From NCBI RefSeq assembly GCF_038025025.1, contig NW_027117347.1, positions 682,001 to 746,000 on the forward strand: a stretch of 64,000 nt of DNA, given 5' to 3'. Made by a program: the position numbers and the translations under genes. A model generated the notes under the pieces. That model saw only the letters and a list, made by a program, of their open reading frames with translations, was not told the DNA's origin and did not search any database. Shown here one piece after another: positions 58,704-63,564 of this stretch. Source of the DNA: Phyllosticta citribraziliensis. Taxonomy: Eukaryota. Each line of letters opens with the position of its first letter. The stretch's first letter is position 1.

Positions 58704-59414
58704 GATGAGACAGGGCGTGATCGGATGGGTGGAGTATGGACGACTGGTGCCAGCGCGACGAGTCTCAGGCTTCACGCGACAGCCGTGACGGGGCTAGGGA
58801 CGTGGAAAGATCGGCTAGGGAACGTGCGTGCAAGGACGCGAGATGAAGGTTCCTTTGCAATGGGTGTCGAGGGTAAGGATGCGACCCGAAGGCGTGTGGG
58901 TGAGAGGAGGAATGGCTGGAGGTTGATTGAAACTTTTGGATAGGCTTCGCGGTCCGCCGCTGGGCGTGGGGGAGTTAGGTTGGCTGGCCCTAGCTTCTAC
59001 CTCAGCCGCCCCACGCCGTCGCCGCAACTCGGGCATCCAGGGCGCTCGTCTCAACTCGAACATCGCAGATGTCGTCAGGTAACGTCGAAAGAGCAGTCTT
59101 TGAAAGTGATACGACTGTTACAAAGTGCTGTCAGCTCTACTGATTCTCAAAGCACAAAATCGACTTGATTCGCGGTCAACGCACCTTTTCCTCGGATCAT
59201 AATGCTTGCTTCTGCCACTCCCACAGCACTGGTCATTTTCAAGTCTCTGTCGAGGAAATTTGACCTACGCTGGCATGTGCCAACTCACGTTCAATCATGC
59301 GCTGTCTGTGAGTCCAGTCATTGAAGTCCAACCTTAGGGTTCATGAAGATGCTGCCTTAGCCGAACCTCGAAAATGCATGCCAGGCGCCTGTTGAGCGAA
59401 AGCTGCGACAGAGT

Positions 59415-59568
59415 ATTCGCTTCAGTCCATGTAAATTGCGAACCTTTTGCTGGCAGTGAATGATTGCGGGTACGTTCTATCACGTCCGCTAAATAGCCTA
59501 CATTCGCTTCAGTCCATGCGAATTTGGCGCGCCGAATGATTCAAGTACTTTGCGCGAAATGAAGCGAA
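59415..59568. repeat. 17-bp direct repeat ATTCGCTTCAGTCCATG (59415-59431, 59502-59518) plus an inverted core TGAAGCGAA (59560-59568)
   Basis: Exact 17-mer copies 87 bp apart, each followed by AATT...GAATGATT...GTAC. Confidence 0.85.
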
Positions 59569-59890
59569 AACGCCGCGCCTGCTCTTCAGTACACTTTTCA
59601 CGGCGTTACAATATTCAGCTTCAACTCACTTTTCTCAGGAGCACAATGTCACTTCATGGACTTGTCTCTTGTGAAATTCTGTAGTGAACTCAACATGACT
59701 ATAAATCTTCCGTGGATAATTTTCTCCCCCCTTCAACTTCAACACTTCAAGCCTTCAAGATCACCATTCGCCCTTCAAGCTCTTCTTCTACGTTCAGAAA
59801 ACGCATCCAAATCTCTCACACTGCCGACCGAAATCCGGGTTCAATTCAAACGCATCCAACACCTTCACCTCCAATTCGCAATCAGAAAGG

Positions 59891-60847
59891 ATGCCGGGCA
59901 AGACGACAGGACCGATGGGTAGACTGATGGCTCTGTAAGATCATGATCTATGGCCACCCCTAACACCAAAGCAGCTTACTGACAGATGATTCCAGGGTCA
60001 GCCACGGGTCGTCGATGTGGAGACGCGGATCACGCAGGGCCATCCTCTTGAGCCCAAGAACCACTCTTCGCGTCGAGACCGCCAGTCCAACTGAGATCGA
60101 CGAGGCTTCGCACAAGCGCAAGCACCAGGGTGAAGGTTTCAACCTCCTCCTCACCCCTGGTCCCATCGACGTCGATAACCAGTCAGCACGCGCTGCGACT
60201 CCAGGACACCAGCCATCGACACCATCGACACCGTCAGCCGGCGACCCTGCCGTTCCCCAGGAGGTCGACGGAACAGAGCCCCTCGTGTTCGCTGTTGGCC
60301 GCAGCATTCAGAACGGAGAACGCGTCGATGACCCCGAGGCCATGAGCGTCTGGACTGCGACCCGCCGCCACCACGTTCCGGCAGGCCGACCCAGCAAGGC
60401 GCAGAGGCAGCAGATTCAGCATGCCAGCCAGCACGTCGTCGCCGAAGTCCTGATCTTCAACCGCGACGAGATGGGATTCGCCTCGGGCAGGCTGGTCGAG
60501 AAGAGGCAGCTGCTGACTCTGTACGCCACGCAGATGGAATGGGAGGCCTTCATGGCGGAAAGCTTGGCCAACGGCTGGACCAAGGTTACGGGCCAGAGGT
60601 TGTAGTGGAAACTTGCAGCAAGCAGGACAAATCGCTGCTCACGGTAAGCCAACGTTCGAGGAGCCGAGGATATCCGACCTGACAAACCTCTAGTAAATTA
60701 TCCTTATTCATGACGGCCGGCGACGACGACTACGAAAGTCCGACGAATGAGCGCGTCAGGGGCTACCTCGATTCATTCCCAGGGAGCATCCGACATCTCG
60801 TCTCAAAGTTTTTGGCATTGGGTTCCATATTGATATCCCGGCGCTGA
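59891..60847 (+). CDS. Orphan gene. Exon 59891-59934, intron 59935-59995, ORF to TAG 60603-60605 (217 aa). The frame stays open through intron 60644-60693 to TGA at 60847 (281 aa if the TAG is recoded; could be a pseudogene).
   Basis: TATAAA at about 59700 and a C/A-rich leader. Both introns (GTAAGA...CTGAC...CAG and GTAAGC...CTGAC...TAG) preserve the frame. Confidence 0.6.
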
Positions 60848-60941
60848 TCCGAGTTCTTGAGCGTTTTGGAGACGAAAACCGGGTGTGAGGTTTGGCGGTT
60901 TGGCTTGAAGTCTTTCTCATTTTTTGCTTTGCTCTTTTATT

Positions 60942-61855
60942 CTAGTTGCCTGGTTGGCTCTTCACGTCTCGTTTCCTCAACTGATCGACGCCGTCTATTT
61001 CAACCGCGCCAGCATGCTTCTTTTCAGTGTCGACTTTGAGCTCGCTACTTCTCTCAATCACCCACGTCTCGGAGATCTCCTTCCTTTCCACCTTCTTCTT
61101 CTCTTCGCCCTTTGCCTCCTTCACTCGCCGCAGGTAACCCATGTAGATTGCAACTTCTGCAAAGGCGACGACACCACTGCCAGTCATGCTCAATGCCAGC
61201 CTCTGAGGCGTGCTCCAGTACCGCGCTGCCATCCATATTGCTACACTGCAGGCTATGATTGAGACGAGTACGTTGATGATGAGGGCGAGCTGGCGGTTGA
61301 TATCGGCGTAAGTGACTTCGTCATCTTCGTCTTTCATGAGGTCGGCAGGGGAAATAGCAGAAGGGTAAGGAGCGGCATTGGAGAAGCGTTGCGCGTAAGT
61401 CTCGGTGGGTGGAGGCGGATTGAGCATGCGCTCGTAGGCGCGAGCCTCCTCGTCGCGACGCAGGCGCGCCATGAGCTGCTTGTATTCATTGCTCTTCAAA
61501 GGTTGTCAGCAGCGGCACGACAGCGCTCCGGCAGCAGACTCACAGGCTCGGGCTTTGGCTTCGGTGGAGGAATGTACACTCGAGAACCGCGAAGGAGTTC
61601 ATTCAGGTGGAATTGGTATTGATTCTGGGCTTCATCTATCGGCCGATCATTGTTGTCATCTGGCGTGTTCAAGCGGGCTTTGAGAAACTCTGATACGTCA
61701 ATTAGTTGGCCATGGGATATGGGCTTTCCAAGCTCTGGGTCCGACAGCGACGGCTCGGATGGCGGCTGGAGCTTGGTCATTTGCTCCGCATCTGCCAGGT
61801 CAAAACACTTGTGGACAGCCGCCACGGTGGCGGGTGTCATGGTCAACAAAACCAT
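60942..61855 (-). CDS. VMA12: V-ATPase ER assembly factor Vma12/Vph2 (TMEM199-like); intron 61494-61543
   Basis: MVLLTMT...GKPISHGQLID...LNELLRGSRVYIPPPKPKPEP|SNEYKQLMARLRRDEEARAYERM...INVLVSII...AEVAIYMGY, with two TM helices. Confidence 0.9.
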
Positions 61856-62115
61856 GGCGACGAGTTGTTGTTGGGGAGCTGGAGATGCACAAGGTGGAGT
61901 TGTGTCGCGGCGGCGAGGTCACAGCTGGCTGGAGTGCCCTGGGCTGGCCGTCGCTTGGCGCAGATCCCTGGTAGTGGATTTTCCGAACAGCGCCGTCATC
62001 GCGTCAACGCTTTTCCCAGACCCTCGATCTGAACTTCGATTCTTTGCCTCCCCAGGTCCTATCCTGCTGCCAAGTTTCCCCAGGATCCTCAATTCCGGAC
62101 GGTGCAGCAAAAAGA

Positions 62116-63564
62116 ATGGCAGGCCGGACATTAACCTCGCCGGCCGTGGCCCGCGCGACATCTTTTGCCGCACACCGTCCGCGAACATCTCTTTGCTCAA
62201 GATGTCTTCGCTCGCCCTCGACCAAGTCCTCTTCCTTTCCTTCCACATCTCTCTATTTTCACCCTTCGAGGCGGCGGGAACAGTCCAACTGGGCGGCAGC
62301 CGTTTCGGCGGCGCAGAACTACTTCAACAATGGTCCAGATCCCGCGTCCCCCATTGCTGTTGACCCGTTGCGCAGCGTGGCGAAGGAGATGAAGTTCCTG
62401 ACTGGCAATATACGTCAGCTTCTGGGCTCTGGGCACCCAATGCTTGATACTGTAGCCAAATACTACACCCAATCCGAAGGCAAATACGTGCGGCCCATGC
62501 TCGTCCTGCTCATGTCGCGCGCCACCGCATTAACGCCCAAACCCGCTCGCGCCTCGCCTTCGCCGCCTATAAACAGCCCCATAGCGCCTTCGAATATCCT
62601 GGTCGACGAGAACCCTTCTGCGCCGGAATACGCGCCCCTCACGTCGCAGCCACAAGAGAATGGAGGCGCTGAAGAATCCGACATCCTGCCTTCGCAACGG
62701 CGACTGGCCGAAATCACGGAGCTCATCCACACTGCCTCGCTGCTCCACGACGATGTCATCGACCACTCGCTCGCCCGGCGATCCGCGCCGTCTGCAAACA
62801 TCGAATTCGGAAACAAGATGGCGGTTCTGGCTGGAGATTTCCTGTTGGGAAGGGCATCGGTGGCGCTGGCGAGGCTGCGCGACCCGGCCGTGACGGAGCT
62901 TTTGGCGACCGTCATTGCCAATCTGGTCGAGGGCGAGTTTATGCAGCTCAAGAATACGGCCAAGGACGAGAAGCACCCCGTGTGGACCGAGGACACGGTC
63001 ACCTATTATCTGCAAAAGACGTACCTCAAGTCGGCGAGCTTGATCAGCAAGTCGTGCCGCGCGGCCGCAATCCTGGGCGGCAGCACTCCAGAAGTGGTGG
63101 AAGCTTCGTACCAGTACGGCAAGAACCTGGGCCTGGCGTTCCAGTTGGTCGACGACATGCTGGACTACACGGTGTCGGCCGATGAGCTCGGAAAGCCCGC
63201 CGGCGCGGACCTAGAGCTGGGCCTGGCGACGGCGCCGCTGCTGTTTGCGTGGAAGGACAATGCTGCGCTAGGCAAGCTGGTTGGGAGGAAGTTTGCAGAG
63301 CCAGGAGATGTTTTGAAGGTCAGTCCAGCCTTTTTGTTGTTTGGACGGGACCCTGGAATCCTTTGACCCCTTTCCCCCGCATTTGGCTAATTTTCGTCAT
63401 AGGCTCGAGAGCTCGTTGGCCGCAGTACTGGGCTCGAGCAGACGCGCGCCCTGGCGCAGCAATACGTCGACAGCGCCATCGAAGCCATTAGCTTCTTCCC
63501 CGCGAGCGAGGCCAAGGACGGCCTTGTCGAAATGTGCACCAAGGTCATGAAGCGCAGGAAGTAG
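62116..63564 (+). CDS. COQ1: Mitochondrial polyprenyl diphosphate synthase; intron 63319-63402
   Basis: GKYVRP, ELIHTASLLHDDVID, AVLAGDFLLGRA, LVEGEFMQL and AFQLVDDMLD, with an Arg/Ser-rich presequence. Confidence 0.96.

Follow-up and report, generated by a model that had tools for sequence, protein, structure and literature searches.

The gene considered here lies on the forward (+) strand of the window, the 64,000-nt stretch of DNA from Phyllosticta citribraziliensis (Dothideomycetes, Botryosphaeriales) that was analysed. Its predicted start is the ATG at 59891. Exon 1 (59891..59934) encodes MPGKTTGPMGRLMA and supplies two bases of the next codon; it is followed by a predicted intron 1 of 61 nt (59935-59995; GTAAGA...CTGAC...CAG) and by the main coding exon, exon 2 (59996-60602), which runs up to a TAG stop codon at 60603-60605 in the context TTG TAG TGG. 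Behind the TAG the frame remains open for 12 codons plus two bases (60606..60643; WKLAASRTNRCS), up to a 50-nt + strand intron look-alike in the correct phase (60644-60693; GTAAGC...CTGAC...TAG) that is recognised from its sequence signals only, and then for 50 more codons before a TGA at 60845-60847 (60694..60847). This last segment is the proposed C-terminal extension (peptide KLSLFMTAGDDDYESPTNER...). The arrangement of TAG, intron and TGA described in the original prediction is exact, and all of its coordinates were confirmed on the sequence. The product is 217 aa long when it ends at the TAG and 281 aa long if the TAG is read as W.

The gene models differ in their 5' structure, which must be regarded as unsettled. 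The N-terminus encoded by exon 1 (MPGK..RLM.L) is also present in the P. capitalensis model P0006. The deposited P. citribraziliensis model P0002 (MRCL-VSHG...) has an 11-nt first exon (59297-59307, with its ATG at 59297), a GTGAGT donor at 59308, and a 688-nt intron leading to the same acceptor at 59995. The 5' parts disagree among the models of relatives P0004, P0005, P0007 and P0009, and P0007 seems, from our back-translation, to be a translation of this DNA in a different frame. Upstream of the gene there is a 23-nt direct repeat (ATTCGCTTCAGTCCATG...) at 59415-59437 and 59502-59524, 87 nt apart, with a third, partly complementary copy at 59549-59571.

Exon 2 encodes a product with 100% identity to P0002, which is deposited as 'uncharacterized protein J3D65DRAFT_670252'. 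The gene had been described as an orphan, and this was borne out at the level of the genus, since an HMM profile built from six family members and searched against 1.84 billion representatives recovered Phyllosticta proteins and a single further match, a protein of 7917 aa with 23 matched stretches that we take to reflect low complexity. Pfam contained no family for the gene, the proposed tail or two antisense ORFs, the ESM Atlas gave no usable look-alike for the gene product, and Rfam gave no match within 59200-61200 at E values up to 1. Scanning metagenome contigs with the family alignment yielded 323 pattern matches, none of which was confirmed, and the structure of the product predicted from a six-sequence alignment was uninformative (pLDDT 39.7, pTM 0.22). 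The gene is thus like other orphan genes of filamentous ascomycetes in having no Pfam family and no homologue outside Phyllosticta, and no unusual difference from them was observed.

Codon usage, GC content by position, alignment and in-frame indels all mark exon 2 as coding. The + frame of the CDS scores best of the six frames in codon usage (+0.211 per codon), and GC by codon position in its C-terminal half is 0.62/0.45/0.84. The family alignment has 68 invariant columns, mostly in the last ~110 residues, and it is this C-terminal portion that is conserved within the genus, the N-terminal half being divergent and prone to indels. Contigs of relatives were aligned at 80% likeness, and include X8, from organism D (~94% identical), and X6, which holds several strains. 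The length of a Pro/Ser/Thr-rich STPSTPS stretch (60225-60227) varies among these relatives, with a 9-nt deletion in one X6 contig and an 18-nt insertion (ACACCGTCAACTCCGTCA) in organism D; the P0003 protein has an insertion of ~26 residues upstream of this stretch that resembles a tandem duplication (TSPTEI..). A minus-strand coding gene beneath the CDS was considered and rejected, as the + frame comes out best in the six-frame codon scores and the 134-codon antisense ORF has, by our reading, no Met before its second half.

The convergent neighbour, on the minus strand at 60942..61918 with its stop at 60942-60944, encodes a Vma12-type V-ATPase assembly factor. PF11712 is matched at 60945-61505 with 135.5 bits against a gathering cut-off of 25.5 (E 1.6e-39), and an ORF upstream in the same gene also matches PF11712 (E 0.0058). 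The stops of the orphan gene and of Vma12 face each other tail to tail, 336 nt apart. A polyprenyl synthetase gene (61975-63366, + strand; PF00348, E 5e-63) is arranged head to head with Vma12, their open frames being separated by only ~60 nt.

Twelve proteins of the family were retrieved; P0014, an N-terminal fragment, was excluded, and the other 11 reach the C-terminus. Compared at the protein level, ten of these 11 models or ORFs end at the residue where the TAG stands (...GQRL or ...GDRM): P0002 from P. citribraziliensis, P0003 from a Logan contig of a relative, P0004 and P0005 from two P. citriasiana strains, and P0007, P0009, P0010, P0011, P0012 and P0013 from P. capitalensis. When the P. 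citribraziliensis model is set aside, this residue is still the last one in nine of ten orthologue models, which represent three or more other species. The only model to continue is P0006 from P. capitalensis (HDK90DRAFT_513905), which extends 46 residues beyond GDRM. P0010, a contiguous Logan ORF that matches P0006 over its full length, ends at GDRM and so places a stop in the DNA of the P0006 lineage; because the stop is in the P0010 DNA, we conclude that P0006 bypasses a real stop by means of a modelled intron. Within P. citribraziliensis, the 206-aa protein P0002 is recorded identically from two contigs under two GenBank accessions, and an independent contig, from sequencing run X2 of this organism, is identical to the window across 59699-60634, TAG included. 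Judged from these comparisons, the TAG is an ancestral and ordinary termination codon.

The sequence behind the stop behaves differently from the CDS. Relatives show ten indels in all; the two within the CDS are 9 and 18 nt long, whereas only one of the eight outside it is a multiple of three. Downstream of the TAG there are frame-breaking indels of +2, +1 and -2, and those inside the proposed tail comprise a -3 at 60797, a +2 at 60813 (in X8 and one X6 contig) and a +1 at 60813 in another X6 contig. By our reading, four of the five substitutions listed within 60695-60844 are nonsynonymous (D>G, S>G, S>P, R>Q) and one is synonymous; this is a weak argument, because the N-terminal half of the real CDS is equally without third-position bias (7/5/8 by codon position for 20 X8 differences). 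The 12 codons after the TAG have a codon score of -0.414, a non-coding value, and GC by position of 0.33/0.75/0.42. The 50-codon segment scores +0.087, the best of its six frames, with a GC3 of 0.66; this score is ambiguous when set against a coding mean of +0.187 (sd 0.157) and an off-frame mean of -0.289 with a 95th percentile of +0.111. Nothing resembling the 50-residue tail turned up among proteins of 89-2000 aa. An apparent likeness by eye between the tails of P0006 and of the present gene (AAS...DYD...LDS) was rejected, as 837 of 2000 shuffles score as high. The open frame that follows the TAG is most likely coincidental and non-coding.

Splicing in this region is represented in the X2 run, whose identification as RNA is a guess of the tool that labelled it. 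Its contig, 4182 nt long with a depth of 1322, covers 59699-60634 and 60688-61000 (1249 nt with no differences) and contains one joint. This joint leads directly from 60634 to 60688 and skips the 53 nt of 60635-60687 (one contig, depth 1322, side 255). The skipped segment has CT..AC ends on the + strand, which is the GT..AG signature on the minus strand, and we therefore read it as a minus-strand intron (60635..60687; GTTTGT...GCTTAC...CAG), the strand being taken from the junction motif as is standard practice. The joint is not an alignment ambiguity, since removal of the + strand intron at 60644-60693 would give a different junction sequence. Neither + strand intron is removed in the X2 contig, which is unbroken from 59699 to 60634 and retains intron 1. 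The + strand junction from 60643 to 60694 is absent from the contigs of four runs, in which minor isoforms are invisible; Logan contigs drop rare variants, show neither transcript ends nor expression, and reveal strand only through the junction motif. The X3 run (organism A) leaves 59910-60059 and 60461-61000 uncovered and is uninformative on splicing. The end of the X2 contig at 59699 adjoins a TATAAAT at 59701-59707. The skip (53 nt) exceeds the look-alike (50 nt) by 3 nt, so the X2 sequence, as we read it on the + strand, also keeps the frame open after the TAG, a one-in-three coincidence.

The 53-nt intron sits 255-307 nt downstream of the Vma12 stop, and belongs either to the Vma12 3' UTR or to an antisense RNA. 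The X2 contig spans the + strand gene completely and has a junction of minus polarity, which points either to a Vma12 transcript with a long, spliced 3' UTR or to a natural antisense transcript covering the orphan gene. There are parallels to fungal gene pairs that converge and have overlapping 3' UTRs, introns in the 3' UTR and antisense transcription, in that the genes lie tail to tail and a probable spliced RNA of minus polarity runs through the 3' region, although here the transcript that carries the 53-nt intron is ambiguous in the contigs.

Taken together, the locus very probably contains the conserved stop of a small Phyllosticta-only gene, followed by a frame that is open by chance in a 3' region shared with Vma12. 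The approximately 340 nt between the two stops would serve both genes as untranslated 3' sequence, the spliced RNA would be that of Vma12, and the + strand 'textbook intron' would nearly coincide with a 53-nt intron spliced from minus-strand RNA. Among the readings offered in the original prediction was a chance-open 3' region containing an intron; the chance-open region is favoured here, but the sole junction seen (60635-60687) is on the minus and not on the + strand. Several observations count against our explanation: measured against the fungal intron consensus, the + strand look-alike (GTAAGC, CTGAC, TAG) fits better than the minus-strand intron (GTTTGT, CTTAC, CAG); an extension of this kind through a strict intron is rare among long ORFs of the window (two of 111); the 50-codon segment has the best codon score of its six frames; and one P. 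capitalensis model, P0006, does pass the stop. A normal stop followed by a coincidentally open frame has little significance as it stands. The case is nonetheless a caution for scanning by sequence, as an intron look-alike can nearly overlie a real intron of the opposite strand.

The X2 run could be DNA, in which case the 53-nt skip would reflect not a minus-strand intron but a polymorphic deletion. The label 'RNA?' is only a guess, and the contig extends across several genes, which lie on both strands, and retains the predicted intron 1 of the + strand gene. We have taken X2 as RNA because a random deletion would show canonical GT..AG ends only ~2% of the time by our estimate (3 cut placements x 2 strands / 256); moreover, 53 nt is a typical length for a fungal intron, a genome run would not usually reach a depth of 1322, and the 1249 nt show no further difference. 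We regard a DNA origin as unlikely, and it would leave the main verdict unchanged; a true 53-nt deletion would itself argue against coding constraint here.

A different route past the stop would be an alternative 5' splice site, TT|GTAGTG at 60602, joined to the acceptor at 60693. This would delete the TAG and give a minor, longer isoform, with the product ...TGQR-F-KLSLFMTAGDDD... joined in frame; the donors at 60602 and 60644 are 42 nt apart and have the acceptor in common, so both keep the frame. The stop does overlap a GT, as in known cases of alternative 5' splice sites that remove stops, and the continuation of P0006 despite the stop in its lineage's DNA implies a modelled intron with its donor over the stop. 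However, fungal donors usually carry a G at intron position +5, which GTAGTG does not, and no junction from a 60602 donor occurs in the X2 contig, which passes unbroken through 60602-60634. The tail of P0006 is unrelated to the present one, so that the tails are dissimilar between species, nine of the ten other models do not use a stop-bypassing splice, and the frame-breaking indels in relatives fall within the tail. We therefore think such an isoform quite improbable, and our preferred reading presumes that no minor + strand isoform is made. Little credit can likewise be given to the broader idea that the conserved stop may double as a regulated exit, by editing in a Dothideomycete or through the weak donor GTAGTG, and so lead to a stage-specific, fast-evolving tail.

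The original prediction raised the prospect of an edited or read-through stop. On this reading stage-specific UAG to UIG editing or read-through, with or without splicing of 60644-60693, would add the C-terminal tail. Such events are known elsewhere: PMC11156358 describes 71 Fusarium genes with premature stops edited at UAG (PUK1 and 70 others) together with hundreds of stop-loss sites, and stop-loss edits are likewise counted in hundreds for Fusarium and Neurospora in PMC11156358 and PMC13123824. Stop-loss tails can be unconserved and destabilising, according to PMC13123824. The present locus resembles these edited stop codons in having a UAG followed by an open frame, and editing to UGG would lengthen the protein on paper; it differs in that orthologues share the present stop, that the downstream frame is unconserved and that the A lies in a predicted stem. 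Among its targets the fungal editing enzyme prefers UAG with U at position -1 (PMC11156358, PMC13123824), and A-to-I mRNA editing in fungi favours both U at -1 and hairpin loops (PMC11156358). The first of these is trivially true for any UAG, and the minimum-energy fold places A60604 in a stem and not in a hairpin loop, the fold being no better than those of shuffled sequences (z -0.55). In genes where editing corrects a premature stop a sense codon would be expected in relatives, whereas here nine of the ten orthologue models share the stop and none shows a sense codon. An edited product that retains the + strand intron would gain only 13 residues.

The lineage of the host is also against editing. 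P. citribraziliensis is a Dothideomycete, a class without documented mRNA editing that falls outside the lineages with sexual-stage editing, the Sordariomycetes and some Pezizomycetes. According to PMC11156358, documented editing is confined to Sordariomycetes and Pyronema, and none was detected in Aspergillus nidulans or Botrytis cinerea; the interaction of Ame1 with Tad3, on which editing depends, is reported in PMC11087585 to have arisen in Sordariomycetes. These two sources leave fungal classes beyond Sordariomycetes and Pyronema open (PMC11156358, PMC11087585). Our literature search found no paper linking Phyllosticta with RNA editing. The X2 contig reads A at 60604, in a sequence from which rare variants are dropped and which is likely minus-strand RNA. 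Editing at A60604 is thus unsupported and has a low prior. Orthologues end at the same residue (10/11) and relatives have indels that break the frame behind it, so that an edited or read-through stop is very improbable. Were sexual-stage RNA to show A>G at 60604, the locus would become notable as the first example of mRNA editing from the Dothideomycetes.

That the TAG is a recent nonsense allele, a RIP-type mutation or an assembly error of the present strain, as was suggested from the fact that TGG or CAG becomes TAG by a single transition, can hardly be entertained, given the conserved position of the stop across species, the 206-aa protein in two assemblies and the identical X2 contig.

With the TAG read as a normal stop, the remaining question is how often a frame should stay open in this way by chance. 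Among the 111 ORFs of at least 150 codons on both strands of the window, 29 (26%) extend at least 62 codons past their stop, a figure confounded by overlap with real coding exons. Extension by way of a strict intron look-alike is seen in two of the 111, the present case among them, and the combination of open frame and intron exceeds chance only mildly while being uncommon per gene. We also considered whether intron look-alikes are mirror images of minus-strand introns, and rejected this as a general explanation, the enrichment being weak (17 of 58 look-alikes have a relaxed partner on the opposite strand, compared with 17% of random intervals). The 64 kb contain 58 strict short-intron look-alikes, of which 32 lie on the + strand; with one every 2 kb or so on each strand, such coincidences are to be expected in a scan over thousands of genes.
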